DNA of 56,311 nucleotides from a virus (Duplodnaviria; Caudoviricetes), in IMG/VR virus record IMGVR_UViG_3300021420_000314, positions 1 through 56,311 of that record. The stretch is one strand, 5' to 3'. Each line of letters starts with the position of its first letter. Position 1 is the stretch's first letter. Under the pieces are notes generated by a model that saw only the letters and a program-made list of their open reading frames with translations, ran no database searches and was not told the origin of the DNA. Position numbers and translations under genes: made by a program. Below are positions 900 through 36,388 of the stretch, one piece after another.

Positions 900-2294
900 C
901 TAGTCTTCCGACACCACCGAGGGGTTGGTAGGTGCCGCCGGAGGCGCGGGCGGGGTGTTGGGCGGTGACGGAGGCAGCCCAGTGGTCACAGTCACGAGCG
1001 GCGGATCCAGCGACACCCACGTTACGCTGCCGTCCTGAGTCAGGACACCGGCAACATCGCTGAACGTGGGACGCGTGGCGCCAGTCGTACCAGCCACAGA
1101 GACCTGCTGGTAACTGTTCGTGGCGCAGTCGTAGATGATCGTGCCGAGCCTGAAGAACGTGTTGCTCGCGTAGACAGCGAGGGCCGCGGCCAGGAACATC
1201 TGGACCGTGTCGGTGTCGAGCGTGACCGCACCGGTCATCGCCAGCAGCCGGCCGTTCACGTTGACGCCTGTGCCGACCGTGATCGACGCCTGCGCCATGA
1301 TCGTTCCGACGAAGTTCGTTCCGCCATTCAGCGTGGCGCTGGAGCCGACGGCCCAGTACACGTTCTGTGCCTGTGCTCCATTCAGCAGCAGCACGTCGCT
1401 GTTGTTGACGGCAGTCGTCAGCGTTGACCCGATCTGGATTATCCAGACCGCGTCGGGATTGCCCTGCGCATCCAGCACCAGGGTGCCGGTGATGGCAAGC
1501 GAGCTGGCAGCGTTGTAGACGCCAGGACGTAGAGTCGTGCCGCCGATATCAGCCGCGAGAGTCACGGCGCCCGTGCGACCCTGTGCATCGGTGTACGCAG
1601 TGTGGAGCGCGCTCTGAGCAGCTGCGGCGACGAAGTCGTTCATGTGCAGCACGCCGCTGAACAGGGCCGGGGGACCGAAGCCAGTGATGGACGTACCCGG
1701 GGACACGCCGACGTCACCGCCGACTATGGTCGCACCGGTATTCGTGATCGTTGAGCCGGCCAGAATCTCGAAGCTGCTCGCCAGAGCAACGTCCACAGCA
1801 TCCGGTACCGGATCGAACGGAACCGGGGGACTGATGATCTCGACCGAGTCTGCGCTCGACACGCCACCGACCACTGCCGTGATCTCGTAGCTGTAGATGT
1901 GACCCGGGATCACAGCGTTGTCGATGAAGTACGGACGCGAGCGGGCGTTGGCCGATGCACTCTCAGCGGTGGCGCCGGTGTTCGCCAGCGTCAGCGAGGT
2001 GGCCGTGGAGGCCATGCACACGAACCTGCCGTTGTTGCCAGCGTTCAGGAATCCCGTGACCGTGAACGTCAGGCCGATGAAAGCGTTGCTGTCGCCACCA
2101 GTGATGGTGCCGGTATACACCGCGTTCCCGGAGACCGAAGCGGTCACGCTCGAGAGAGCCAGGAGCGGCGCATCGAGGACGTTCGTAGCGTAGGGGGTGG
2201 CGGCTTCGTTGCCGGGAGCGGTACCTCGAAAGATATTGTACGAGGCGCCGGGGGTCGGGCTGCGATCCCAAGAAATCGTGATTTCGTGCGACAT
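900..2294 (-). CDS. DUF3494 (IBP-1 fold) ice-binding-family protein with N-terminal FN3-like domain
   Basis: Family motifs [97 protein letters not shown]3-like ITISW...YNIFRG...YSYEITAV. Likely start MSHEITISW at 2294. Confidence 0.9.
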
Positions 2295-2397
2295 GAGGAG
2301 GTACCTTGTGAACGTGACGTCACAACCCCCCACTCACTATATACACCTTTTTTCGCCGCTATGTGCGCTGGCCCACATATAAACCTGATTTTTTTGT

Positions 2398-2450: not shown

Positions 2451-3629
2451 TTACAGACCGGAGTTCGAGACCACCGCATACCCGACGAGGGTCGGGTTGA
2501 TGACCTGGAATCCCCAGACCTGCAGACCGCGCATCAAGGTGCCGAAGGTGCTCTCCGAGCGGAGAGTCTCGACCTTCGTCATCTGCGACGCGAACGTCAG
2601 ACCCAGCGCGTGGCCGAAGTACACACCGTACTCACCGGCTGCGAGGGTCGCGGCAAGACCAGCCGCGGCGGCGCTCGTCGCACCAGCGGTACCCGCACCC
2701 GCGCCGCTGCCGATGGGCAGCAGGTTGGACACGTACACCGTGAAGCGATCGATCATGCCCAGGCGCCCGTTGCGCGCGATGGACACTGCGTCACCGGTCA
2801 AGTACGCCTGCTGGAACGCAGACCGCTTGACCATGGCCGCTGCCCAGGCGGGCAGAACGATCCAGCGGCCCGTCTCCGGGACGCGCTGTTCGTCGAGCGC
2901 CTGACCAGCGTCGATGATGAAGTCGAGCACAGCCTTCGCCGAGCTCTTGCTGTAGCCCACGCCCTGCGTCTCCGCGACGCCGTAGAACGTGCCGGGCGAT
3001 CCCGGGGTCTGGGTCGAACGGGCCAGCCAGAGCGGAGCTCCGACGTACTTCTGCGTGCCAGCGGCGCCGAAGAAGATGACCGAGTTCGTCGAAGCGCCGA
3101 AGTTCAGCGTCTGCGACAGACGTCCCGCCTGCGGGCCGAGGTTGGCGCTCACGCCGCCGGCGCTGACCACGATGGTCGTGGCTCCGGAGACCTGGTTGCC
3201 GATGCTCGTTGCAGCGAGGATCTGGCCGTCGACGTAAACCTTCATCTGCTCAGAGGCGTTGTCCGCCCAGTTGCTCAGCAGGTCGACGTCCGCCTGGATC
3301 TCCATCACGTCGTCGAGGACGGTGTTGAAGTAGGCGCCCTGGTTGATGAACAGCTGCACGAGGTTCGAGCTCGGCCGCTGAACGGTCAGTGCCTGGTCCG
3401 TGGTGTAGGCCAGGATGTTGATCGTCGGATGGGTACGGATGTTGACGGTGTCGCCAAAGTTCCGGATCTCACCCTCGTAGTCGGTCGAGGCGATCGCGCC
3501 GAGGACGGTCGCGTCGTAGAACTTCTCGACGAACTTGCCCGACCAGATTGTCGGGATGAAAATGCCTGAGTAGGCCGGATTGGCGCTTGAGCCAAGGTAC
3601 GGCGTACCGACGGGATATACGGTCGTCAT
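2451..3629 (-). CDS. Major capsid protein
   Basis: FIPTIWSGK, TDYEGEI..GDTVNIR and LDEQRVPETGRW motifs typical of P22-coat-like HK97-fold capsids. Lies after the scaffold, with GGAG RBS and a downstream terminator. Confidence 0.88.
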   Translation of the reverse strand: MTTVYPVGTPYLGSSANPAYSGIFIPTIWSGKFVEKFYDATVLGAIASTDYEGEIRNFGDTVNIRTHPTINILAYTTDQALTVQRPSSNLVQLFINQGAYFNTVLDDVMEIQADVDLLSNWADNASEQMKVYVDGQILAATSIGNQVSGATTIVVSAGGVSANLGPQAGRLSQTLNFGASTNSVIFFGAAGTQKYVGAPLWLARSTQTPGSPGTFYGVAETQGVGYSKSSAKAVLDFIIDAGQALDEQRVPETGRWIVLPAWAAAMVKRSAFQQAYLTGDAVSIARNGRLGMIDRFTVYVSNLLPIGSGAGAGTAGATSAAAAGLAATLAAGEYGVYFGHALGLTFASQMTKVETLRSESTFGTLMRGLQVWGFQVINPTLVGYAVVSNSGL

Positions 3630-6104: not shown

Positions 6105-6133
6105 ATCATACGGTGGGTTTACCCACCAGGCAA
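6105..6133 (-). promoter_or_regulatory. Putative sigma70-type promoter with a palindromic spacer
   Basis: Minus strand TTGCCT-N17-TATGAT; the spacer contains the inverted repeat GGTGGGT-AA-ACCCACC. Confidence 0.45.
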
Positions 6134-8509
6134 GTGTGTAGAGACGTTGTTCATTGGAGTGACCTGTGGCGCCACAGGTATGCCCTGCACGCCGCCAGCG
6201 CCCTGCGGCGCGGCGCCAGAGGGTGCAGGCTGATTGTTTCCAGTCGGATTCTGCCCCACGCCTGGCATGCCCAGCAGCGCACCGGTCGCACCCGGGGGCA
6301 CGTTCCCCTTGAACTGCACGTTCACACGCGGCGGCGGTGGGGGTGGCGGAGGCGGGGGTGGGGGCGGAGGCGGCGGCGGCCCGAAAACGTTCCCAGGGGG
6401 TCCCGGCTGAACACCAGGAGCCAGTCCCGGAGGCGGCGAAGTAGGCGCGTCATCCGGGTTCTTGATCTTGAGCTCGATCCCGAGGTTGTCCGCGATGGTC
6501 TGGACGAGGGTTGCGATCTCCCCTTGGCCGAGTAGCGGAGCCAGCGCAGGATTGCTGACCAGGTTGAGGAACTGGAGCTGCTTGGTGAGGTCCTGTTCTT
6601 GCTTCGCGGCATTTCGTACCCCGTCGACCACGATCTCTTCGTCACCACGGAGCATCCCCGTGTTGTCGGTGAGCATGATCATATCGTAGAGCATGTGGAG
6701 CATCGGCGTGAAGACGTCCTTGTCGATGTTATCAGCGACATTCTGGAGCGTCTTGTTGGCGTTGTTGATCAACATCGAGAGGCCGGACGCAGTGCGTCCA
6801 GCTCCGCCGGCCGGCCCCTGGCCCGTCAAATAACGCGGGATGGTCGATACGTCATCGAGCATCACCGAGAACTTATCCAGGACGGCCATTAGCTCCTGGG
6901 AGTTGGAGGTGGGCTGGTAGAACTCGACAGGCTTACGGTTAGGGTTAGCTGGATCCCCGATGTATTTCCACCGTTTCCACGGGTAAAGAGCATCAGTCTC
7001 AGTCGGCGAAATAAGGTCTTCATCGTAGATCACCTGGGGACCCGAGGCGATCGACATGTTGTTCACGAGCGCGCGCAGCGTCGCGTTGATGACGTCGGTC
7101 AGGTCATTCGCGAGCGCGGGGATGCCGTTGCCGTAGAGCGAGCCGGGCTGCTTGTCGAAACTCGTGACGTAGTACGGCACGCGCTTGCGCGGGGAGGGAT
7201 TCAGCATCACCTTGAAGATGTGTTTGTCGACCATCCACGCCGTGATCATGTACGGTTTGTAGTCGTCCTTAACACCCGGGACACCAAATTCCTTGAGATA
7301 TAGGCCCAGAACGGGACCGTGAAACTCGATAGCGTTGATGTACGTGTCATCGAGTATGTTGTTCCGTCCTTCCATGAACGCCCGCTCATAATCGAAAATC
7401 TGTATCCATTCCTTGAAACCGCGTGCCTGATAATTTTGAATGATCTGTTTGATGTCCTCGTCTCGATACCCAGGGAGACCGATGAGGTTGTAGAGGTCAT
7501 CAACAGAGAGGCGCTGACGTTCAAAAACCTCAGTCTGCGTAATATGGGTAGCGCCCGGGGAAAACCAAATATCCCACGGACTGACGCGGTCCCAGAAGAA
7601 CCGAGCCTCTTCATGTGCGGAGATGTCACCTGCTTTGCTCCACTTCAGGGCGGTGTGCCGGCGGGTGACCGGACCCTTGATGACCGCGTACTTGTAGACG
7701 GGCAGGTCGGACAGGAACTCCGACAACGCGTCGTAGAAGCGGCCCTTCTCCAAGATCTCATCCACCTTGCGCATCGCGTCGTGCGCCTCCTCGCCGGCCT
7801 TGCGGCGCTCGGAGAGCTTCACGGCCTCGTAGAGCTGCTCGAGCCGGTCCTTGATCATGTGCTGGGGAACCATCATCCCCTGCTGGTTGACCGACTGAAC
7901 CTCGGTCATTACCAACCGCTTGATTTTCAAGTCGATCGCATCGGGCACGACGGGGTCAGCGGTCGGCTCGAAGCTCCAGGGGCGGTCCGAGTTCATATAC
8001 ACATTGCGCAGAAGAGCAGTCGCTCCTCGGCACTTCATCGTCATAAGACGCGAGTACACCGCGGAACCGCCGAAGCTCTTGATCTCCTGCAACTTTGTTG
8101 CGTCATACTGGCCGTTGTATGCACGCATGTCCCGGATGAGCTCGTCATCCACCAGGATGACGCGGCGGTGTCGAACCGCCTTCTCGAAGCGCGAGCGGAT
8201 GTACCGCGCGAGCTCCGACATCGCCTCTTCGGGGAGTTCGGACAGGCTCTGCGACTTGCGCTCGGCCGCGTCCATCTCGTCGTTGCCGACCACGCGCAAC
8301 AGTCCGCGCCCCTGGTGCCTCATGGGCTGGGACTTCTCGTCACCAAAGACGCCAGGTAGCGGCGACGCGGCGCGGGCCGAGTTGCCCATGATGGCAATCT
8401 GGCCCAAACCAGGCGTCTGGCCGTTCGGGAACCCTGTTCCGCCGCGGCCGGCGTTACTCGTTCCCTGACCTGTGTCGATGGTGCCTTGCGGGATCGGCAG
8501 GACAGCCAT
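6119..8509 (-). CDS. Portal protein
   Basis: 796 aa between terminase and scaffold; portal-type segments (VSPWDIWFSPGAT, PGSLYGNGIP, RALVNNMSIASGPQV, GRTASGLSML); disordered Pro-rich C-terminus. Confidence 0.85.
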   Translation of the reverse strand: MAVLPIPQGTIDTGQGTSNAGRGGTGFPNGQTPGLGQIAIMGNSARAASPLPGVFGDEKSQPMRHQGRGLLRVVGNDEMDAAERKSQSLSELPEEAMSELARYIRSRFEKAVRHRRVILVDDELIRDMRAYNGQYDATKLQEIKSFGGSAVYSRLMTMKCRGATALLRNVYMNSDRPWSFEPTADPVVPDAIDLKIKRLVMTEVQSVNQQGMMVPQHMIKDRLEQLYEAVKLSERRKAGEEAHDAMRKVDEILEKGRFYDALSEFLSDLPVYKYAVIKGPVTRRHTALKWSKAGDISAHEEARFFWDRVSPWDIWFSPGATHITQTEVFERQRLSVDDLYNLIGLPGYRDEDIKQIIQNYQARGFKEWIQIFDYERAFMEGRNNILDDTYINAIEFHGPVLGLYLKEFGVPGVKDDYKPYMITAWMVDKHIFKVMLNPSPRKRVPYYVTSFDKQPGSLYGNGIPALANDLTDVINATLRALVNNMSIASGPQVIYDEDLISPTETDALYPWKRWKYIGDPANPNRKPVEFYQPTSNSQELMAVLDKFSVMLDDVSTIPRYLTGQGPAGGAGRTASGLSMLINNANKTLQNVADNIDKDVFTPMLHMLYDMIMLTDNTGMLRGDEEIVVDGVRNAAKQEQDLTKQLQFLNLVSNPALAPLLGQGEIATLVQTIADNLGIELKIKNPDDAPTSPPPGLAPGVQPGPPGNVFGPPPPPPPPPPPPPPPPPRVNVQFKGNVPPGATGALLGMPGVGQNPTGNNQPAPSGAAPQGAGGVQGIPVAPQVTPMNNVSTHLPGG

Positions 8510-9370: not shown

Positions 9371-10783
9371 TTATGTCCAGCCGGCGGCCGAGGGAGCGCC
9401 CTTACTATACGCATTCCGCCTGACTCGCACCAGTCTGGCGAGAACATTGCCCGAATATCCCAGGCAGGCGTACTGGAATGCGTCAGCTATGTCCGACCAC
9501 GGATGGGTCTTATCAGGGACCGGATGAAGCTCCCCATCCTTCTTACGGGTGTACCGGTACTTGGATCGGAGCGCGCGTATGAGTGTACTGCAGACGGGCG
9601 AGACGAGCACCGCGGCGGAACCATCACGCTGCTGTAATAGCCACTTCTCCACCGCGCGGAGGCGTGGATCGATGTCATTGGTCTGGGCCGGCTGTGCTGA
9701 TAGTCCCAGGCGTTTGAGAGCCGCAAATACGGACTCCTCCCCAATCTGACTGCGCGCAATCCCGGAAGGGTCACCCACCACACCAACGGGCAGGCGTTGA
9801 TACTCAGGACGAGCCAGGACAGGACGGAGTTGTGTGGACACGAATTGTTCGACACCTATGTTCTCCCCGATGACCTCGTCCAGGACCACAAGACGCCCTC
9901 TTGCATCCATTTGGCAGAGTACGCACGCAGGATGGCGTCCGAAGTCCATCCCGACAAGAACCATGGTCCCCGGTATCGGGACCAACGGCTCTTTCGCCAC
10001 ATGAAACGAGTCGCGGAAGGACGCCCTAAATACAGCCTCACCTGCAAGAGAAGGTGCAATTCTGTTATCGACGTACTGATCCACCCACGCTTGAGAGTTG
10101 TTTTCAATGAGCTCATCGTAGTATCCCCGGACCAGGTTCTCGATGTTCTCTGCGTTGGCTTCGCGGGCGCCCGGCTGTACGAAGTATCCCCAGGTAGTGG
10201 GAAGCGGCTTGTCGTCGAGAATCCTGTCCTCGAGTATCTTATTCCAAGCCGAGTCCTCGTCGAAGCTGTTGGTTTCGCCGATGAGACCATGCCACGTCGG
10301 GCCACCGTGAGCCATTGAAGGATAGCGTCCGCAACGCGAAAGCACGTCCATGAGAATGCGCGGTTGCAGCTCACGCAATTCTGACATCCACGCCATCGTG
10401 ATATCCAGGGACAGAAGCCTCTGAACATTCTCGGGGGTATCCAGGGGCATGAAGATCCACTCGGACTCGATGTCATTGAACTTGATCCAGATGGTTTTGT
10501 CGGCCTCCTTCCAGAGTACCATGGGGCCGATCAGCTCCAGGATCGTCTTGAGGCAAGTAGTCTTGAGCTGAGGCAGCGTATTACGAACAATGACCGCGCG
10601 CGTGCGCCGTATACCATCAGATGGATCGGGCGCTTGCTGCTGTGCGCGACAAAGAAGCTCCATGACCATGCCACTCGATTTGCCACTCCCAACGGGGCCT
10701 CGCACGATTCGGACACGCTGATCCGAGGCCATGAACGTTTGGATGGTTGCGGGCGCGTTGTAGGTAAAATTGCGCTCAGCCAC
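9371..10783 (-). CDS. terL: Terminase large subunit
   Basis: Walker A GPVGSGKS, RNTLPQL, nuclease motif VGMDFG, C-terminal SDIADAFQY. Confidence 0.92.
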   Translation of the reverse strand: MAERNFTYNAPATIQTFMASDQRVRIVRGPVGSGKSSGMVMELLCRAQQQAPDPSDGIRRTRAVIVRNTLPQLKTTCLKTILELIGPMVLWKEADKTIWIKFNDIESEWIFMPLDTPENVQRLLSLDITMAWMSELRELQPRILMDVLSRCGRYPSMAHGGPTWHGLIGETNSFDEDSAWNKILEDRILDDKPLPTTWGYFVQPGAREANAENIENLVRGYYDELIENNSQAWVDQYVDNRIAPSLAGEAVFRASFRDSFHVAKEPLVPIPGTMVLVGMDFGRHPACVLCQMDARGRLVVLDEVIGENIGVEQFVSTQLRPVLARPEYQRLPVGVVGDPSGIARSQIGEESVFAALKRLGLSAQPAQTNDIDPRLRAVEKWLLQQRDGSAAVLVSPVCSTLIRALRSKYRYTRKKDGELHPVPDKTHPWSDIADAFQYACLGYSGNVLARLVRVRRNAYSKGAPSAAGWT

Positions 10784-13565: not shown

Positions 13566-13858
13566 GCCGGTCTCCCCTTCAGGATCCACTCCAGGTGCGC
13601 GCGCCAGTGCTCGAGCGGCGCATCGGCATCCACGAACGTCACACGTTCGGCCTTATCCCCGAACGTCTGCCCATGACCGTCTTCTAGTATGCACATCCTT
13701 CTGATGATGTACTGCCACTTCTTCCCCGCGGGCTTGGCGGGCATGTCGAACGGTCCGGTAAGATTCACGTCCTCGGGTATGAGCTTCAGGAGCTCGAGCA
13801 GCCCGTCGGGCACGGCGCCGTGCACGGTCAGCTGTCCGGTGGTCTTGTCGGTGATCAT
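13562..13858 (-). CDS. Hypothetical protein
   Basis: Start MITDK, ATGA-coupled. Confidence 0.5.
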   Translation of the reverse strand: MITDKTTGQLTVHGAVPDGLLELLKLIPEDVNLTGPFDMPAKPAGKKWQYIIRRMCILEDGHGQTFGDKAERVTFVDADAPLEHWRAHLEWILKGRPA

Positions 13859-14337
13859 GACCGCGGCGCGATCTGTCCTATGATCCGGCCCTGGGTCAGC
13901 CACAGGCCGTCCATCACCGCCTCGTTGCTCGGCGGATCTATCGTCCAGTCGAACTCGTGGACCTTGCCGGTGCACAGGTCGACCATGACGGACACCAGGT
14001 GCTGGGTGATCGCGGTGGCGAGATCGATGTCGGAGAAGTACGCGTTCAGGTGAAACGGCTGGCACGGATGGGTGTGGTAGATCCCGATGAGCTTCCAGTC
14101 GAACGGCACGGTGACGTCGAGCTCAATCCCGTCGGTCTGCCCGCTCGTCTTGGGATCACTGACGATGTACCGGCCATTCGGCATCAGGGCGATGTTCCCG
14201 CCGTACTCGAGCTTGGCCGATTTCCTGGCCGATATCTCGGCCGCGTGCACCGCCGCCTCGTTGAACGTCTCATATCCTAACTGCGCCGGTATCGGCGTGT
14301 TCGCGGTCAGTAGAATTGAGGCGATGAGAGCGAGCAT
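13855..14337 (-). CDS. DUF4329/JAB-like domain protein with signal peptide
   Basis: MLALIASILLTA leader; EYGGNI, YHTHP and FSDID motifs. Confidence 0.6.
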   Translation of the reverse strand: MLALIASILLTANTPIPAQLGYETFNEAAVHAAEISARKSAKLEYGGNIALMPNGRYIVSDPKTSGQTDGIELDVTVPFDWKLIGIYHTHPCQPFHLNAYFSDIDLATAITQHLVSVMVDLCTGKVHEFDWTIDPPSNEAVMDGLWLTQGRIIGQIAPRS

Positions 14338-14342
14338 GCCCC

Positions 14343-14372
14343 ACTCTACGATTGAAGCGGGCCTCACGTCAA
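14343..14372 (-). promoter_or_regulatory. Putative sigma70 promoter (leaderless) for the leftward arm
   Basis: TTGACG-N18-TAGAGT, then 5 nt to the ATG at 14337. Confidence 0.55.
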
Positions 14373-14400
14373 TGTTTATTGGGCTATAAATGTTGACGTC

Positions 14401-14460
14401 AAAAATTTTCCAGGAACTATTTGCGAAGGGGATAGGCGCCCGCGCCGGGGGGTACCCCCC
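14401..14460. other. Candidate genome terminus / packaging-initiation site
   Basis: Perfect palindrome GGGGGGTACCCCCC (14447-14460) plus an AAAAATTTT tract at the strand-divergence point, upstream of the TerS/TerL arm. Confidence 0.4.
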
Positions 14461-14514
14461 TTGTCCATGTGCCCATGGGGTGGTCATAACGTATTAACAT
14501 AATGGGCCAAAAAC

Positions 14515-14940
14515 CCCTATGTTTGAGGCGAACCGCCGCACGTCGAGCCCGCAAGGCCCGCCCGGTCACTAACCTCTAGGTGCAAGCCTACCGCGTGAAT
14601 GCGCACAGGGTATCTGACATAAGTCGTTACGAGCCTAACGGGCTGGTCCGCCTCAGAGAGAGTAAGCGCGGCGAAGTAGCGCGGCTTAAGCGCCGAACAT
14701 AGCAGCGGGTCCGCACGCGCCGCTATCCGGGTACCCGCGCACGGTTGCGCGTAGGTGGTACGCTGGTCTCGCCGTACATGTCTGCCTCGTTTGGCATTCT
14801 ATCGGGAGAACGGTAATACGTGCACATACTGGCGTGTGATAGCAGTATGAGGGGCAGATTATTTAGAATAGGCCTGCGTGGTATGTAAGGTTGTGAACGA
14901 TAGTACCTTAGTGCCTCGCAGGCCTAGATTTTGGCGAGTA
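14515..14940 (+). ncRNA. Candidate large structured non-coding RNA
   Basis: No ORF of 60 aa or more; at least nine nested or serial stems; most imperfect pairs read as G-U on the + strand. Confidence 0.55.
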
Positions 14941-15190
14941 AGCGTCACATGTGGAACGCAAGCGTCACGTCCAAGCCCATGAAAGCTAAGACTAATGACT
15001 CTTATGACTCTTGTGACTCTTATAAACCAATTGTAGATAGACTCTTAAAGTAGATTGAGGACAAGAGAGGCCAAGCGGGCCTTCCCCCCGCCTCTGGAGA
15101 ATTGACTTTCTGCTGTCTCAAGCGTCGCATGAGTCATTCGTCAATGTTTTCAATAACATGGCGGTGACGCTTATGACCCTTGTGACGCTT
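14940..15190. repeat. Inverted array of 9-mer iterons (RTGACNCTT)
   Basis: Reverse copies at 14940, 14960, 15120 and 15129; tandem triplets at 14995-15021 and 15164-15190. Confidence 0.8.
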
Positions 15191-15236
15191 GTCTGTAAGC
15201 CCGCGAGGCCCGCATCTACCATACATGGAGACGTTC

Positions 15237-15410
15237 ATGCTTATCCGCGTGCAAGCGCCAAGCTCGCGCAAGGGTAAAGCGTTGATTATCAAGCGTAATC
15301 GGAAGCATAACGCGGTTATGCGCCGGATGCGCGCGATCATGGCAATCTGGGGCCGGGGCGATTCGCCCGGCGTCCGATGCCTGTCAACGCATTACAGGCC
15401 GAGAGCGTAG
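15237..15410 (+). CDS. Small basic early protein
   Basis: GGAG RBS, ATG at 15237. Confidence 0.45.
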   Translation: MLIRVQAPSSRKGKALIIKRNRKHNAVMRRMRAIMAIWGRGDSPGVRCLSTHYRPRA

Positions 15411-15487
15411 CGCGACTGTGCAGCCCGCGAGAGGCTGTGCAGTCCGATGCACTCTCGCATCATTTCTGTCCTATAGGGGTTAGTCAC

Positions 15488-16027
15488 ATGACTATCGTTA
15501 GAAAGTCGATCGAAGCCATCGTAGAGGCGATTGGACAGGTGGCGGCCACGGGTGCGGCATTTCAGGTGCTCGTCCATGAGACCGCTGTCCAGACGCTCTT
15601 GCTCGTTCGCGAGGAGGGCGATTGGGGTCCGGCACGGGATCTCATGAACGCGATGCCCAAGGGCGCGCGCCGTGAGGCTCTGGCGATCTGGTTCAAGCGC
15701 TTCTCGAACGACAAGCTGCGATTCAGCACGGTCAAGGAGACCGGCCTGTACAAGGGTCATCTCTCCAGCGACCGCGCGTTGTCGGATTTCGACGTTGACG
15801 GCGCTGCCGCTGTCAACTTCGCTGATCTGACCACGGAGCCGAAGGCGAGCACGTTCACCTTGGAGCAGCTCATAAAGACGCTGCAAGCGAAAGCGACCAA
15901 TACCAAGGTCAACGACGATGGCACGCCGAAAGTCGATGAGCGCGCGCGGGCAATGGCCAGCAAGCTCCTCGCGGCGATCTATGGCGGCGGCATCCCCGCC
16001 CCGGTCGCGGCACCCACGGTTCAGTAG
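15488..16027 (+). CDS. Early hypothetical protein
   Basis: AGGGG RBS; helical protein with GDW...LMNAMPKGARREALAIWF, resembling early proteins of other podoviruses. Confidence 0.7.
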   Translation: MTIVRKSIEAIVEAIGQVAATGAAFQVLVHETAVQTLLLVREEGDWGPARDLMNAMPKGARREALAIWFKRFSNDKLRFSTVKETGLYKGHLSSDRALSDFDVDGAAAVNFADLTTEPKASTFTLEQLIKTLQAKATNTKVNDDGTPKVDERARAMASKLLAAIYGGGIPAPVAAPTVQ

Positions 16028-16091
16028 TCCGAAGCTGAGCCTTCCACAGAGCCCCGGAGACCGATCCGGGGCTCGATGGAGGGTTTACACA

Positions 16092-19000
16092 ATGACCATT
16101 CCGATTGCAAACCCGCATGGGCGGCCGTACAACCATCGCTACGCCGAGCAGGTGAGCGAGTTGCGCTGGCACGTATTCATCCGTCGATTCTGGGTAGCTC
16201 TGGGCATGGACGACAAGAGTCGCGAGGCCCGTGCTGCCCGCTGGCACGCAGGAGAGTGAGATGCCGAATCCTGACCTGATCGACGCGCCGCCCGAGTGGC
16301 GCGTATGGGAGCAAATCACAGGCGATGAGCCGCGTGAGCACGCAGCCCGCGTGGCCCGTGAATCCCGCGCGTATCGCGCAGGTGAGCCGCTGAGCCGTTC
16401 TTTGCCACAACACATGCCGGGCTCGCAGCGTGGCCGGTGTTACTGGTGTACGCTGCCGCAAGGAGAGTAACCATGATCCCGCTGAGTGTCTTGCTCTGCT
16501 GGTGGCTGGCAGCGCACCGAAACCGTTCATGGTGGTTCGCATGGTGGGGTCTGTTAGGCCCGCTTGCGCTCATTTGGATGTTGTTCTTCCTTGAGAGGAA
16601 AGTAAAATGACAATCTATCTTCTGGTCCTGATGCTGCAAGGGCAGCTTGCCCTGACAACCGAGCCCGTGGGGTATTCAAGCGCGTCTGAGTGCATCAAGA
16701 CTGCGGACAAGCTGAATGCGAATCTAGGCCATCACTCGGCCGTGTGCGTGGCCGTGAAGGTGCTGTGATGTTCACACTGAATATCATGCTCGCCATGTCG
16801 TGTGCGAGCGTGCTTGTTGGTGGCTGGCGATGCTACCGCTGGTGGGTGAACTATGGACACCTGTTCCGGGTCTGAGGTCTTAAGCTGGACGCCCGCGGTG
16901 GTTGCGAACTACCTGATCGTGTCTCACTACGGTTACGTGCGAGACACGTTTTTGGTCAACAGCGTGAGGCCGTTGCCGCCGCGAGGTGCTGCGCACTTCG
17001 GACACATGGCGAAGCTCCTTGGCCTTTCTCCTAACAACCACGACGAGTTCCTGTTCGATGTGTGGTGCGCGCTCGCGGCCAAGCTGGACGTGACGCTGCA
17101 TACCGTGGATTGATTAACTGATTTTTTGGCCCGCGAGGCCCGATTAGGGAGAGTCTATGACAGACATAACGCGCGCCACGGAGGATTCGCAGCCCGATAG
17201 CCCAGAGCCTGACAGCTCCACGAAAGCACTGCGACCCTTACCTGTGTGGTTGGTGACGCTGAACGCGCTGCACTCCATTGAGTGGCGCTTCGAGCGAGAG
17301 TGCCTTGATAGCACCAGCGCCGACTGCTATTACAGTCTTCGCTGCACCCAATGTGGTGCAGTGTTGAATACCTCTTTCTGGCACCCGGATTACTCGAATT
17401 GGAGCGTGCCCGATGAGTACATCGAAGCCTATGAGAACATGCGCAAGCGGCATGAACACCACGCGCACAAGAAGTCCAACACCTAAGCAACGAGCCCGCG
17501 CAGCCCGTGAGGCTGCTAGACTCGCGTACTTCAAGTCGCTGCCCAATGCGCCGAGGGACCGTGTATGAACGAGCGTGAGCTAGTGGCGTTTGTCGCGCTG
17601 TACGGCATAGAGGTGCGCAGGAAGCGCGAGGGTGTTCGCTACGACGCAGACTATATTCTGGTCAAGAGACTGAAGCGATACCGAGGCCACAAGAAAGACT
17701 GGTGGCCCAAAGAGCCATACATGCCCGGCGAGAAAGACCGCGAATGGCGTTGTCGGTATATCCACGACGGCACGAAGTGGAGCTTGGAAAGCCTGAAGCA
17801 CGTATGCGAGACCATACTGGAGAGCGGCTGGCAGTCGATCAACCACGCCGATATCCAGTTCGATCTTGTGGAGCCAACACATGAAGACTGATCCGTGGAC
17901 AGCGCGTGAGCTAGCGCTGACGCTGCTGTTGTTTCCCGGAGTGCCGCGTGTTCCACCGAGCTCCCAGACGCTGGCCGACTGGTGGAATGACCGCACAGCG
18001 ACCAGATCGCGTAAGTGGTGGGCTAAGCGTTTTAACCAGTCCCATGCTAGGACGTTCGCGCTGTCGAACTTTGGCAAGGCAATCGCGCGCGCCGGCATCG
18101 AGCCGACGCTTGAGAATTACCGGCACTTGGTCAACGCGGCGCGTAAGAGGCACATGCCGAGGAGCAAGCCGATATGAAGCAGCAGCCATACTTGCCGCCT
18201 GTCACAGTCCAAGAAGAGGCTGGCGACCACGCCGACGAAGAGTTCGTGCGTTGCGCGCATGTGGATTGGCGCGTAAATTGCTGCCGCGAGGCAACGTGCG
18301 AGCAGGAGCGCCTGTTATTCGCGATGCTGTGTCTCGACCATGAGATGGCATTCTGGGCCGCATACGGCGTGAGCAGCGCACTGTCAGATCGGTTTAATGA
18401 TGTAGCCGATGTGTGGGACGAAGAGAGTTACCAGCAGAGGAGCGCCCGAGATGAGGAAGCACGATCCAAGCGACGCGATGCGTACGCCCGAAGCAAGCGC
18501 GCTGCTAAAAGCCGAGCGCGCAAAGGCCCGCGCAGCCCGTAAGGAGATAAACCGTGAGCGTTACAAGCGGCGGTACAAAGCTCGCATGGTCTAAGAGCGA
18601 GATGGCGAAGCCCGCGGGGCCTGAGCGGCTGGCGCAGATCGACACCGCATGGTCGTATTACACTCCCAAACATCCGCAGTACAAACACTGGAGGGTTGTC
18701 CCATGGAAGTCCGAATCGATACTCGCTGCTACCGTGAACGCCGCAAAGTCCGGAGAATCACATGGCTAGGAGTCGCGCTAAGCGTATTCGTGATCCTGTA
18801 CGGCTGCCTGATGGGGTGGCTGTTGCACACGGCGTGGCTGTACGTAAGCCTCGTAAAGTAAAGCCCGACTATGAGGCACTGGCGAACGCATTCTCGTTCA
18901 CCAACCCACAGGTCTTCATGCGGTGGGGCAGCAAAGAGACACTGCGCGTGCTGGCAGTAAACAGCAAGGGCAAATCGCCGCGCGTGAACAGGGCCTTCAA

Positions 19001-21325: not shown

Positions 21326-22419
21326 AACTGATTGATTTCCAGAAGAGCGCGCTCATGATGTACAAACAGCGCAAGGCTGTGCATCTGGTCGGTCCGCCCG
21401 GTGTGGGCAAGACCGACGTGATCAAGCACGACGTGCGCGCGCTCCTGTCGGAGGCGCACAAGTGTACGTTCGGCTATGCCGACGTGCTCTTGCCGACCAT
21501 CGACGCCCCGGACCTTCGCGGTTTCTTGGTTCCGACCAAAGACGCGGACGGACACCCGACGAGCTTCTTCACTCGTTCAGCGGTGCTCCCGTCCAAGGCG
21601 TACCTGGCGGAGCACCCGCGAGGGATCATGTTCCTCGACGAGCGCAGTCAGGCTGATATGCTGACGCAGAAGGCTGTCGCTCCAATCGTGCTGGACAAGC
21701 GCTTCGGTGAAGAGTACCTGCCGGAAGGCTGGTGGGTGCTGTCTGCCAGCAACAGGCTGGAAGACAAGGCCGGAACGATTCGTCCCCCGACTCACCTCGT
21801 GAATCGGGAGCGCACGATCTATATCGATCCGGACATCACAAGCTGGGCGATCTGGGCTGAGGCGCACGACGTTCACCCGATGATGGTGGCGTTTGCGAAG
21901 CAGTTCCCCGGCGTGGTGTTCCAAGACCATGTGCCGAAGTCTGCCGGTGACGGCAGCCCCTTCTGCACACCGAGGTCATTCGTGTCCGCGGCCGAGATGG
22001 TCGCAGATGCGGCTGGCGTGGACGACAAGGGCCGTCCCAACATGAGCATCCCGGTCTCATCGCTCCTGTCGCAGATTGTGCAGGGAGACATCGGTGAGGG
22101 CGCGTGTGCCCAGTTGTTCGGGTTCCTGAAGGTTGGCGACCAGTTGCCGACCATCGACCAGATCGAGAAAGATCCCATGAAGGCGAAGTGTCCCGAAGAC
22201 CTGTCCGCGGCGTATGCAGCGATGCAGCTGTGCATCCATCACGCTCAGCCGGTCAACGTGGACAAGCTCTGGACGTACACCGAACGGCTGCCCAAGGAGC
22301 TGCAGGTGTCGGCCGCCAAGTCCCTCGTGGACAAGGGCAAGGGCGTACTGCTGAACTCGCAGGCGCTCAACAAGTGGATCATGAACAACCGGGCGCTGAT
22401 CAACGCGAGCAACAAGTGA
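21322..22419 (+). CDS. AAA+ ATPase (MoxR/AAA_5-like)
   Basis: Walker A GPPGVGKT, Walker B MFLDE, ASNR, TPRS. Confidence 0.9.
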   Translation: MKLIDFQKSALMMYKQRKAVHLVGPPGVGKTDVIKHDVRALLSEAHKCTFGYADVLLPTIDAPDLRGFLVPTKDADGHPTSFFTRSAVLPSKAYLAEHPRGIMFLDERSQADMLTQKAVAPIVLDKRFGEEYLPEGWWVLSASNRLEDKAGTIRPPTHLVNRERTIYIDPDITSWAIWAEAHDVHPMMVAFAKQFPGVVFQDHVPKSAGDGSPFCTPRSFVSAAEMVADAAGVDDKGRPNMSIPVSSLLSQIVQGDIGEGACAQLFGFLKVGDQLPTIDQIEKDPMKAKCPEDLSAAYAAMQLCIHHAQPVNVDKLWTYTERLPKELQVSAAKSLVDKGKGVLLNSQALNKWIMNNRALINASNK

Positions 22420-22563
22420 GCGCGGTACTGATAGGGATGATTGTGGCGCTGTCACCAGTCGTGGTGCTCGCCATTATCCTAGCAGTGCGCTCATGATGCT
22501 GCTCGTGACGGCAGCGTTCCTGATGTGCGTGATCTTGGTTTCCAAAGCGAAAGGAGGACGAAG

Positions 22564-23475
22564 ATGACAGAAAGCAGCGATCTAGGCGCTGCGCTGTCCA
22601 GCAACTACCTCTTGGTCGATGTGCAGATCCACTCGTGGTCTGGCAAGAAGACCGATCAAGAGGCATCGTCTGAACTGCTTGTGTCCAAGCAGGCGACCCG
22701 CGACGGTGGGGCGTTCGTGAAGAACCTTTTGGCATCGGCGAATGCCGAGCTGAAAGCGGTGCAGACGCACCAAGGCGCCTTGCGCCGGTTCGTTTACGAG
22801 CGCACACTGCCGTGGTCAACCTCAGCAGGACTCAAGCGCGGGGACCGTATCTTGGCGACCACAGCCACGATGCAGTTCCTGACCGATCTCAAGCCGTACA
22901 TTCAGGACACCCGAAATGCGGTCAAGGATCTCCAGACGGTCTGGCAGCAGCGCGTGGCGCAGGCAATGTGCAATCTCGGCACTTTGGCTGACGCAAGCGA
23001 TTACCCCGATGCAAGTACCCTCCCCGAACTTTTCGGCGTCTCAGTCGATCTCAAGCCGTTACCTGCGATTACTGACTTTGGCAGGCTCAACGTCCCAGGG
23101 GATCTCGCCGCAAGGCTCGGCCAAAGGTATGAGCAAAGGGCACAGGAGCAGTTCAAAGTCGCGATGGGCGACCTGCGGGACAGATTCATCGCAGAGCTAG
23201 AGCGGATGCACGGCCAGCTGGCTAAGCATGCTAGCGGTGAGAAGACCCGGCTCCACGAATCCATGGCAACCAATCTCCAGATGCTCGTCGATCTGGCGCA
23301 CAGCATGGACCTCGGCAACAACCCCCAGTTCACCGAACTCGTCGCGATCATCGAGCATGAGCTCCTGCGGACACCCGTGGGCGCGCTCAAGCAGGATCTC
23401 CGCCGGGCCGGGGAAGTGGCAGATGCGGCCAAGACCATCGCGGTCAAGGCTGCGGAAGAGGCAATCTGGCAATGA
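22564..23475 (+). CDS. DUF3150-like protein
   Basis: LLVDVQIHSWSGKKTD, TLPW and DYP motifs; usual partner of phage AAA/VWA modules. Confidence 0.6.
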   Translation: MTESSDLGAALSSNYLLVDVQIHSWSGKKTDQEASSELLVSKQATRDGGAFVKNLLASANAELKAVQTHQGALRRFVYERTLPWSTSAGLKRGDRILATTATMQFLTDLKPYIQDTRNAVKDLQTVWQQRVAQAMCNLGTLADASDYPDASTLPELFGVSVDLKPLPAITDFGRLNVPGDLAARLGQRYEQRAQEQFKVAMGDLRDRFIAELERMHGQLAKHASGEKTRLHESMATNLQMLVDLAHSMDLGNNPQFTELVAIIEHELLRTPVGALKQDLRRAGEVADAAKTIAVKAAEEAIWQ

Positions 23476-36219: not shown

Positions 36220-36388
36220 ACCCCCGCTGGCGGGGCCCGCTCAGTCGGGATAGCCAGATGTGGATCAGCCGGCCAGTACCACAATCGCGATAAACCCCGG
36301 CAGTCGGAGCTCGTCGTACTTGCGCTCGCGGCAAAACCTCCCGGCGGGTGATCCGTCCGGCGGGGTCGAAAGGCCCCGTTGTTTCTTA
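36220..36388 (+). ncRNA. Candidate structured RNA element ending in a terminator-like hairpin
   Basis: Nested stems 36253-36361, then CGGGGTC-GAAA-GGCCCCG and TTGTTTCTT. Confidence 0.4.

Follow-up and report, generated by a model that had tools for sequence, protein, structure and literature searches.

We analysed positions 14515-14940 of a Caudoviricetes genome held in the IMG/VR database (virus record IMGVR_UViG_3300021420_000314); "the window" hereafter denotes the whole record of 56,311 bases, which is classed as linear and 94% complete and has both of its ends inside genes. Our preferred reading, to which we assign a probability of about 0.45, is that this stretch forms the promoter-proximal part of a cis-acting, structured, untranslated leader of ~0.7 kb that heads the rightward block of early and replication genes. 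Most likely, such a leader is a phage control region of an ordinary type; it is not proven to be a new RNA machine. A preliminary description of the sequence had proposed a ~430-nt multi-domain structured RNA here; this reduces to a single robust 170-nt domain of two hairpins plus ordinary sequence. The 1-kb gap between the two gene blocks resolves into divergent promoters, the leader, an iteron-bearing, origin-like module and a small basic first gene.

Results

All 11 stems that had been proposed are present at the positions given for them. Those formed by CGTTA/TAACG, GTACC/GGTAC, CGCGCA/TGCGCG, CTCGCC/GGCGAG, CATACTG/CAGTATG and TAGGCCTGCG/CGCAGGCCTA are perfect, as is, read by eye, TAAGGT/ACCTTA (14886-14891 with 14905-14910); GTCTGCCTC/GGGGCAGAT combines 7 Watson-Crick with 2 G-U pairs, and GGTAT/GTGCC combines 3 with 2. 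In the 5′ part of the leader (domain 1, 14524-14702, + strand), the outer stem CTATGTTTG/CGAACATAG (14517-14525/14694-14702) has 8 Watson-Crick pairs and 1 G-U pair, and TGAGGCGAACC/GGTCCGCCTCA (14524-14534/14645-14655) has 10 Watson-Crick pairs and 1 A.C pair, which would be G-U on the - strand. Imperfect pairs had been described as mostly G-U on the + strand, which is true of domain 3 (8 G-U pairs in the + fold against 1 in the - fold) and fails in domain 1. The outermost stem of domain 1 overlaps the -10 hexamer of the promoter described below and may lie upstream of the RNA start; if the RNA started near 14530, the half at 14517-14525 would be outside it.

Domain 1 also includes a 5-bp hairpin with a GCAA tetraloop (TAGGT[GCAA]GCCTA, 14577-14590). 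It is followed on the + strand by the middle hairpin GTACC-CGCGCA/TGCGCG-GGTAC (14731-14761), whose perfect stems have pair probabilities of 0.57-0.91, and by the 3′ domain (domain 3, 14768-14938), which consists of a branched hairpin (3a, 14780-14859), a long imperfect one (3b, 14869-14926) and a run GATTTT at 14927-14932. Hairpin 3b is built of 10 bp, a mismatch, 5 bp, a bulge and 6 bp; its 10-bp base is GC-rich and leads into the GATTTT run. In the ensemble of the full leader, pair probabilities were 0.95-1.0 for hairpins 3a and 3b, ~0.79 for the closure of domain 1 and 0.25 for the closing stem CTCGCC/GGCGAG.

Minimum free energies were compared with those of dinucleotide shuffles, separately for each strand. 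Domain 3 was the part in which the proposed structure held: its z-score was -5.47 on the + strand and -5.02 on the - strand, with 0 of 200 shuffles as good on either, and the hairpin at 14865-14930 reached -7.2 and -6.6, respectively. The proposal did not extend to domain 1 (z -0.79 on +, 43 of 200 shuffles; -3.08 on -, 1 of 200), to the middle hairpin (-0.03 to -0.7 on + and -1.0 on -, significant on neither strand) or to the candidate as a whole on the + strand (z -0.80), for which the result was folding no better than shuffles, the outcome that the preliminary description itself had named as refuting. When all 170-nt windows of the genome were compared (4492 strand-windows, energy regressed on composition), domain 3 ranked 21st (+) and 23rd (-), in the top 0.5%, and the windows of domain 1 on the + strand were average, with residual z-scores of 0 to +1. 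About eight other places, mostly coding, fold more extremely than domain 3; such 170-nt windows, unusual for their composition, lie at 22376-22850, 15951-16170, 2351-2545 and 21326-21495.

Relatives were collected with the large terminase, which led to 64 IMG/VR loci (best 66-71% identity), nine of which keep the divergent gene arrangement. The pattern of the promoter block returned 2 known contigs from IMG/VR and 6 loci from a metagenome collection, including 3 new sequences (L077, L078 and L080). The 13 related loci considered here are those with the divergent arrangement; L003, L076 and L079 are identical over the stretch considered, as are L007 and L075.

Immediately upstream of the candidate and reaching into its first bases is a sigma70-like promoter (14494-14523, +; -35 TTAACA, 18-nt spacer, -10 TATGTT), which points into the stretch. 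A consensus scan of 14200-15500 returned two promoter-like sites only, and this one is the sole copy in the window. The invariant core CATAAYG-N9-11-CCC occupies the same place and orientation in 12 of the 13 loci, the remaining locus (L032) retaining its downstream half only, and a TTGACA-like -35 is found in all 12 core-bearing loci. The preliminary description held that the RNA is made first on infection, which is plausible because the stretch lies directly downstream of this promoter-like block, conserved in the relatives. Conservation reaches further upstream. The single weak match that nhmmer gave among the 64 IMG/VR loci (L003, E 4.9e-4) is confined to the promoter block at 14391-14532 and covers a block of G/C runs, GGGGGGTACCCCCC TTGTCCAT GTG CCCATGGGG (14446-14485). 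In the relatives, the conserved order is a G/C run, then GTCCAT..CCCAWGGG, then TTnACATAATG-N10-CCCTAT. The G/C-run and GTCCAT..CCCAWGGG block stands just upstream of the early promoter in several of them and is a possible binding site, packaging signal or end signal.

A long gene-free stretch between the promoter block and the first open reading frame (ORF) with a ribosome-binding site (RBS) is kept in all 13 loci. It measures ~340-440 nt in L002, L003, L007, L015, L030, L032, L078 and L080, and 660-920 nt in the loci with an inserted iteron module (L013, L022, L034 and the window); the L077 contig stops before any ORF. Hairpins with GNRA tetraloops, counted independently of any predicted fold, number 18 on the + strand against 5 on the - strand of 12 leaders, and shuffles gave 7.9 ± 2.7 on the + strand, 0 of 300 reaching 18. 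With the homologues L003, L078 and L080 counted once, the numbers were 14 (+) and 5 (-), one of the former being the window's own hairpin at 14577-14590. These loops, together with the excess of G-U pairs, are strand-specific marks that favour an RNA on the + strand. What the leaders keep across clades is position, promoter and general style, and not sequence or a recognisable fold.

Within a sister clade, by contrast, a fold can be followed. Its leader (L003:3870-4264 (-), L078:6430-6830 (+), L080:80-480 (+), L007:5150-5548 (-) and L030:2370-2775 (-)) is ~370-400 nt long and ends in a strong conserved 25-bp hairpin (GGGGGTTATTCTCTCAAG...CTTGAGAGAATAACCC). Because this hairpin abuts the RBS and ATG of the first, small ORF, the stretch is a 5′ untranslated region (5′ UTR) there. 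From these five sequences, RNAalifold derived 106 pairs, 35 of which show a compensatory change (for example, CCTTG-TAACT-CAAGG to CGCGG-TAACT-CCGCG). Among the 94 non-coding pairs, 84.3% of cells were paired, against 75.2 ± 1.1 in shuffles (0 of 500 reached this value), and both members had changed in 32 pairs, where shuffles gave 14.1 ± 2.8 (none of 500 reached 32) and slid partners 6-11; these counts are inflated, as the structure was derived from the same five sequences. Compared with column-shuffled alignments, the fold had a z-score of -12.2 on the + strand and -9.8 on the - strand. The ratios of G-U to A.C pairs were 11:0, 12:1, 7:4 and 10:6 in four of the sequences, which are among those that gave the structure. 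As far as five sequences show, the sister-clade leader is a structured RNA, with a multi-helix fold and GNRA loops on the + strand. An Rfam scan of five related loci at E ≤1 returned one chance match, of 20 bits against a gathering threshold of 233.

Four sequencing runs carry the stretch, all of them as contigs, which provide means of depth and from which strand, ends and levels of expression cannot be read. In a soil metatranscriptome of another study, three contigs truly lie on the 8-kb stretch that was compared: 14549-14886 (338 nt, the deepest, at depth 4.3), 15099-15249 and 15850-16000, located in the leader, iteron module and first early gene, respectively. A fourth record was discarded, as it touches the 8-kb stretch with two 18-letter pieces only. 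We regard these contigs as a hint of transcription, not proof; the run was found using the same stretch and may contain DNA. As it was chosen in this way and consists of contigs, the portions of the 8 kb that no RNA contig covers are given no weight. The DNA run X2, from a third study, holds a close strain, which differs from X1 at 3 of 976 positions in 14378-15353 and is identical to it in two adjoining coding contigs; contigs further out differ by 1.6-3.2%. Two of the three differences are listed, T14875C, the only known variant inside a stem, and A15073G, which is in a hairpin loop; the third is probably near a contig end. The X2 contig at 14378-14944 has a mean depth of 9.4, compared with 5.7-5.9 for its neighbours and 2.8-4.2 further out (all contig means), and either a terminal repeat or a segment common to co-occurring strains would explain this excess.

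The end of the candidate coincides exactly with the start of the iteron module (14940-15195), which contains three copies of AAGCGTCAC, their inverted counterparts GTGACGCTT and three tandem copies of TGACTCTTA around a less G+C-rich core. These iteron-type repeats, beside replication genes, make it a putative origin, and it folds with z-scores of -4.8 (+) and -4.1 (-). Modules of the same kind with clade-specific words occur in L013, L022 and L034; the repeat words of the relatives' modules are TGTAACAGT, CTTACAG and GTTATTCTGTTAT, often beside the word TAAGTCATTGAT. In these three loci, inverted repeats of 26-30 nt (86-88% complementary, arms 194-388 nt apart) surround iteron plus AT-rich modules (L013:3631-3925, L022:1091-1344 and L034:2033-2476). 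The window has a repeat of the same type, weaker than these: one arm of it, at 14900-14926, is the 3′ half of hairpin 3b, and the other is at 15196-15222 (27 nt, 70% complementary, 269 nt apart). Pairing of 14914-14926 with 15196-15208 in the RNA was considered and rejected, its ensemble probability being 0. Elsewhere among the relatives, the same arms pair as a hairpin with a short loop immediately ahead of the first ORF, which gives the impression that the loop of that hairpin houses the origin cassette or received it by insertion. In the L003 clade, whose iteron module lies on the downstream side of the early gene at a distance of >1 kb, the structured leader is still present.

Downstream of the module, the first rightward ORF (15237-15410, +) is preceded by GGAGA and encodes 57 aa, among which 11 Arg, 4 Lys and one acidic residue were counted by eye. 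Its only homologue is in L032 (43% identity over 56 aa, E 3e-9, tblastn); Pfam gave no family and the Atlas no neighbour. This Arg-rich protein may bind nucleic acid. The next gene (15488-16027, +) encodes a conserved early protein matching phrog_1448 (PHROG, E 2e-21), and the alignment with 8 homologues indicates that its true start is probably the ATG at 15488, giving 179 aa. Distant homologues of this protein occur in 86 phage records, three of which were opened. The homologue is encoded by the first annotated gene in Caulobacter phage Cd1 and Brevundimonas phage BC, and by the second in Pseudomonas phage U47 (Bruynoghevirus). LUZ24 gp2 we take to be the equivalent of U47_02, the Bruynoghevirus "conserved early protein" of the same family. 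Because Cd1, BC and U47 all have 1.1-1.5 kb of non-coding DNA ahead of the homologue, a long, gene-free, promoter-bearing stretch before the phrog_1448 gene is the normal layout. In Cd1 and U47 this DNA bears annotated sigma70 promoters, and in U47 also a terminal repeat; in BC it has no annotated features. The layout of these three phages also gives some basis to the "putative genome end" beside which the preliminary description had placed the RNA. The source contig and related contigs of 59-65 kb run unbroken through the region. The sole related record classed with terminal repeats was rejected as support for such an end, as it has only a 127-nt assembly overlap in coding-like DNA.

In the window at large, a leftward block of head and packaging genes and a rightward block of early and replication genes diverge at 14338-15236. 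The leftward block includes the genes for the major head protein (2451-3629), the portal/adaptor (6119-8509) and the large terminase (9371-10783), and its last gene (13855-14337, -) has a weak DUF4329 match. The rightward block encodes an ATPase, an HNH endonuclease, a DNA polymerase, an exonuclease, an A1-like DNA transfer protein, a helicase and a primase, and further leftward virion genes lie beyond 40.2 kb. The phage looks virulent. Beside the major head protein gene, 900-2333 (-) encodes a 477-aa protein that lacks a PHROG match and carries a strongly matching ice-binding-like domain (PF11999, E 1.3e-61). The distribution of the word GCCCGC follows the direction of transcription: it occurs 51 times on the + strand, mainly in the rightward block (13.5-37.7 kb), and its complement GCGGGC occurs 35 times, mainly in the leftward blocks; both totals are near expectation (~40 each).

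The second promoter-like site of the consensus scan (14343-14372, -; TTGACG, 18 nt, TAGAGT) would serve the leftward block. Because it stops 5 nt short of the ATG at 14337, the first leftward gene may be read from a leaderless mRNA. Between the divergent promoters, a repeat search found a 14-nt inverted repeat with TTGACG in each arm (14366-14399, 86% complementary), which is a candidate operator; TTGA(C/A)GTCAAAAAT of this region is common to the window and L003. The candidate had been called the longest ORF-free stretch, and rightly so: no ORF of at least 60 aa occurs in 14488-15133 (646 nt), compared with 174 nt for the runner-up in the window. Small hidden genes were considered for the leader and rejected, as the ORFs of 31-40 aa within 14515-14940 have no Shine-Dalgarno sequence discernible by eye and the sister-clade leader is full of single-base indels.

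The stretch is non-coding and, as had been stated, it is no tRNA, transfer-messenger RNA (tmRNA), riboswitch or known ribozyme that we could match. Rfam 15, whose families include riboswitches, ribozymes, GOLLD, ROOL, phi29 pRNA and tmRNA, gave nothing in the candidate when the whole window was scanned at the gathering threshold, and ARAGORN found 0 tRNA or tmRNA genes. A permissive Rfam scan of 14200-15500 (E ≤10) returned only a chance match to sul1 at 14419-14469 (-), of 15.8 bits against a gathering threshold of 36.2. Elsewhere in the window, the only match at the gathering threshold is the Rfam motif Proteo-phage-1 at 36221-36305 (+, 66.2 bits, E 8e-10), which occupies the ORF-free stretch that ranks second in length and separates the helicase gene from the following ORF.

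Several characterised phage leaders resemble the stretch in part. The left end of phage T7 carries the host promoters A1-A3, a long untranslated leader and the RNase III site R0.3 just before the first gene. In the window, a host-type promoter, identified by consensus and conservation, would likewise read toward the first early gene, with several hundred untranslated bases before a small first early gene. Large imperfect hairpins that precede the first cistron or lie between cistrons are a further likeness, as is the early protein family, whose gene is the first at the genome end in the T7-like phages Cd1 and BC. As modelled, hairpin 3b (14869-14926) would have the shape of a T7 RNase III site, with about two helical turns and an internal loop. 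The window differs from T7 in that a scan of 27 of its ORFs revealed no gene for an RNA polymerase, in its two-block divergent/convergent layout, which is like that of LUZ24 and not a single transcription direction, and in the iteron module inside the leader, whose place at a genome end is only putative. The pL-nutL-N leader of phage lambda contains a boxA/boxB antitermination site and, ahead of the small Arg-rich gene N, a hairpin sensitive to RNase III. A promoter, a GNRA-type hairpin (14577-14590), a large hairpin upstream of an RBS and a small, very basic first ORF (15237-15410) follow one another similarly in the window. However, no sequence likeness to boxA/boxB is seen (no boxA word by eye) and none of the 57-aa ORF to N, the leader is two to three times as long as that of lambda, and the window's phage looks virulent. 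The put sites of HK022 are two defined stem-loops, ~70 nt in total, that act as antiterminator RNAs. They share with one suggestion of the preliminary description the idea of cis-acting hairpins in the nascent early RNA just past the promoter, but the first 180 nt of the window's stretch fold no better than chance on the + strand.

In the literature searched, nothing closer was found than two reports. Non-coding RNA (ncRNA) candidates derived from 5′ UTRs have been described in virulent Pseudomonas phages including LUZ24 (Putzeys et al. 2024, PMC10914365); in the parts of that article available to us, these RNAs are shorter than 250 nt, have mapped 5′ and 3′ ends and share >90% identity within a genus. 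The likeness lies in a structured RNA that directly follows a sigma70-type phage promoter and may stop prematurely; in addition, the early protein of the window is of the same family as the Bruynoghevirus protein U47_02. Set against the RNAs described there, the window's unit would be ~400 nt long, is known from sequence without mapped ends and has no alignable relative. As regards a premature stop, hairpin 3b with its four T residues was not called by the terminator scan, and RNA ends are unreadable from contigs. The crAss-like phage phi14:2 produces abundant early long non-coding RNAs (bioRxiv 10.1101/2020.03.07.982082). According to the accessible part of the preprint, they come from long intergenic regions near the start of the early block, are transcribed rightward from the earliest time point and have unknown function. 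That phage belongs to another group with another host, its transcription is by a virion RNA polymerase, and the same part of the preprint describes no structure.

Discussion

Under the reading that we prefer, transcription by the host RNA polymerase would begin at the conserved sigma70-like promoter (14494-14523). The 5′ part of the RNA would be weakly structured, and its 3′ domain (14768-14938) would fold stably, with two long hairpins. The transcript would then continue across the iteron module into the Arg-rich ORF (15237) and the early gene (15488). The hairpins of domain 3 would act in cis on the early RNA. They might serve as double-strand (RNase III-type) processing or stabilising sites, hairpin 3b being shaped like an RNase III substrate, or hairpin 3b with the following UUUU might cause a partial stop. 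Folding might also protect a long untranslated RNA from Rho and nucleases. In favour of this reading are the promoter-like block, the long gene-free stretch after it in all 13 loci, the 5′ UTR and compensated fold of the sister clade, the GNRA loops and G-U pairs on the + strand, the contigs of the RNA library and the place of the early gene in the three named podophages. The stems, the significance of the local fold, the promoter-like block with its conservation, the gene order and the presence in an RNA library are observations; the start site, the strand, the early timing and all functions of the hairpins are inferred.

Several results weigh against this reading. On the + strand, the whole candidate (426 nt) folds at -168.6 kcal/mol against -163.7 ± 6.2 for shuffles, 19 of 100 of which fold at least as well, and it is the - strand that stands out (z -3.29, 0 of 100 shuffles as good). 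In a comparison of 12 single-sequence leaders, the window's scored z -0.90 on + and -4.2 on -, and the 12 as a group were mixed (+1.3 to -3.3 on +, two of them positive) and no better than on their - strands. No alignable homologue of 14530-14940 was found in the 64 terminase-linked loci, the 6 metagenome loci or the phage collection. In particular, blastn with its "distant" settings gave no match to the candidate region in 50,697 phage records, and blastn of 14338-15376 gave none in the 64 IMG/VR loci. The early protein as a single query in IMG/VR confirmed 0 loci, a four-sequence alignment of it recovered known contigs only, and a pattern of the hairpin arms was discarded after its 9 stretches in IMG/VR proved to be 7 chance matches without a promoter block and 2 known ones. 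The fold of the sister clade could not be carried over: a profile hidden Markov model and covariance models of its 5′ half (R1) and 3′ half (R2) match neither the window's leader nor those of other clades, the best two matches of R1 (E ~0.9) being in coding DNA and R2 having 0 matches. The leader of L032 was likewise rejected as a homologue, its local alignment with the window's leader scoring below the shuffled mean. The -10 departs from TAnnnT in 4 of the 12 core-bearing loci, leaving promoter assignment and start site uncertain; because the -10 is poorly kept and the invariant CATAAT itself could be the -10, we predict the RNA start only as lying within 14509-14531. T14875C, present in all three other runs, converts a U-A pair of hairpin 3b to C.A on the + strand and to G.U on the - strand. 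The inverted repeat 14900-14926/15196-15222 encloses the iteron module, which fits a role in DNA. To these points must be added the inflated sister-clade counts and the possible DNA content of the metatranscriptome.

Some of these observations would be expected if the inverted repeats acted in DNA. They would then belong to the adjoining origin, forming hairpins or a cruciform on either side of the iterons or signals for single-strand priming, or they would be part of a packaging site or terminal repeat at the physical end of the genome. We consider such an element unlikely, though by no means negligible. Fold significance is alike on both strands in domain 3 and in the iteron module, and for the region as a whole the - strand has the better score. 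T14875C leaves a G.T-type pair on just one of the strands and makes the recurrent word GCCCGC, and the inverted repeats of L013, L022 and L034 enclose their modules in the same manner as the complementary arms do here. A terminal repeat would also give the doubling of X2 depth over 14378-14944, and the homologous early gene adjoins the genome end in the named relatives. The depth, however, is equally explicable by co-occurring strains with a common segment, the unbroken contigs speak against an end at this place, and the record classed with terminal repeats offers an assembly overlap only. Enrichment of GNRA loops and G-U pairs on the + strand and a promoter-like block that points into the stretch are features of RNA, and the L003 clade keeps a structured leader even though its iteron module is more than 1 kb away. 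It is also conceivable, although again rather unlikely in our view, that the stretch has no specific function and is a spacer between promoter and origin or first gene, its hairpins having arisen by chance or by local duplication in a G+C-rich genome. This would suit the + strand score of the whole region, the ordinary folding of domain 1 and the middle hairpin, the eight or so more unusual places elsewhere and the lack of conservation of leaders between clades. It accords poorly with the folding of domain 3, with the keeping of a long leader in 13 of 13 loci and with a sister-clade fold kept by compensatory changes. The near identity of X1 and X2 in 14378-15353, compared with 1.6-3.2% divergence in the outer coding contigs, also tells against a mere spacer, with the reservation that the adjoining coding contigs are identical too.

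The suggestion closest to the preliminary description is a discrete ncRNA of ~400 nt that runs from the conserved promoter to hairpin 3b and its UUUU (~14932), is made early and acts in trans or as a regulatory RNA derived from a leader. The promoter-like block, the GC-rich 10-bp stem base followed by GATTTT and the position of the deepest RNA-library contig inside the unit are compatible with it, and the early long non-coding RNAs of phi14:2, so far as the available part of the preprint describes them, offer a precedent (bioRxiv 10.1101/2020.03.07.982082). Nevertheless, we think it improbable. The terminator scan does not call this 58-nt hairpin with internal loops and four T residues, an end at 14932 would preclude the closing stem at GGCGAG (14933-14938), which is itself weak (0.25), and RNA contigs are also found downstream, at 15099-15249 and 15850-16000. 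The relatives' equivalent hairpin lacks a T-run and is followed immediately by an RBS, and the absence of sequence or structure conservation between clades would be unusual for an RNA with a trans-acting partner. As for a decoy or packaging RNA acting in trans, as had been suggested, nothing indicates one, and the equivalent stretch of the relatives runs straight into the RBS of the first ORF, as a 5′ UTR does.

A cis-acting leader is the reading that we retain, and a more far-reaching version of it can be formulated. The leader might belong to a fast-evolving class of structured RNAs of 0.3-0.4 kb that head the early operon in uncultured soil podophages and that, with the Arg-rich first gene product, form an N/nut-like antitermination or self-regulating module; alternatively, reading into the iterons, it might activate the neighbouring origin or serve it as an RNA II-like pre-primer. 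The fold would have been invented anew in each clade, with the promoter, the GNRA-capped hairpins and the large hairpin before the first ORF retained. We regard this version as a long shot.

For the window, the practical value of the analysis is the annotation of a 1-kb gap. The better candidate for a new RNA motif is the ~370-nt leader of the sister clade (L003, L078, L080, L007 and L030), which shows real compensatory changes and matches no Rfam family; given more sequences, it could be defined as such a motif. If our reading of the window's leader holds, this group of uncultured soil podophages, which has no cultured representative, would provide a further example of virulent phages that start infection with a long folded untranslated RNA, whose role, as yet unknown, may lie in stability, processing, resistance to termination or coupling to replication.

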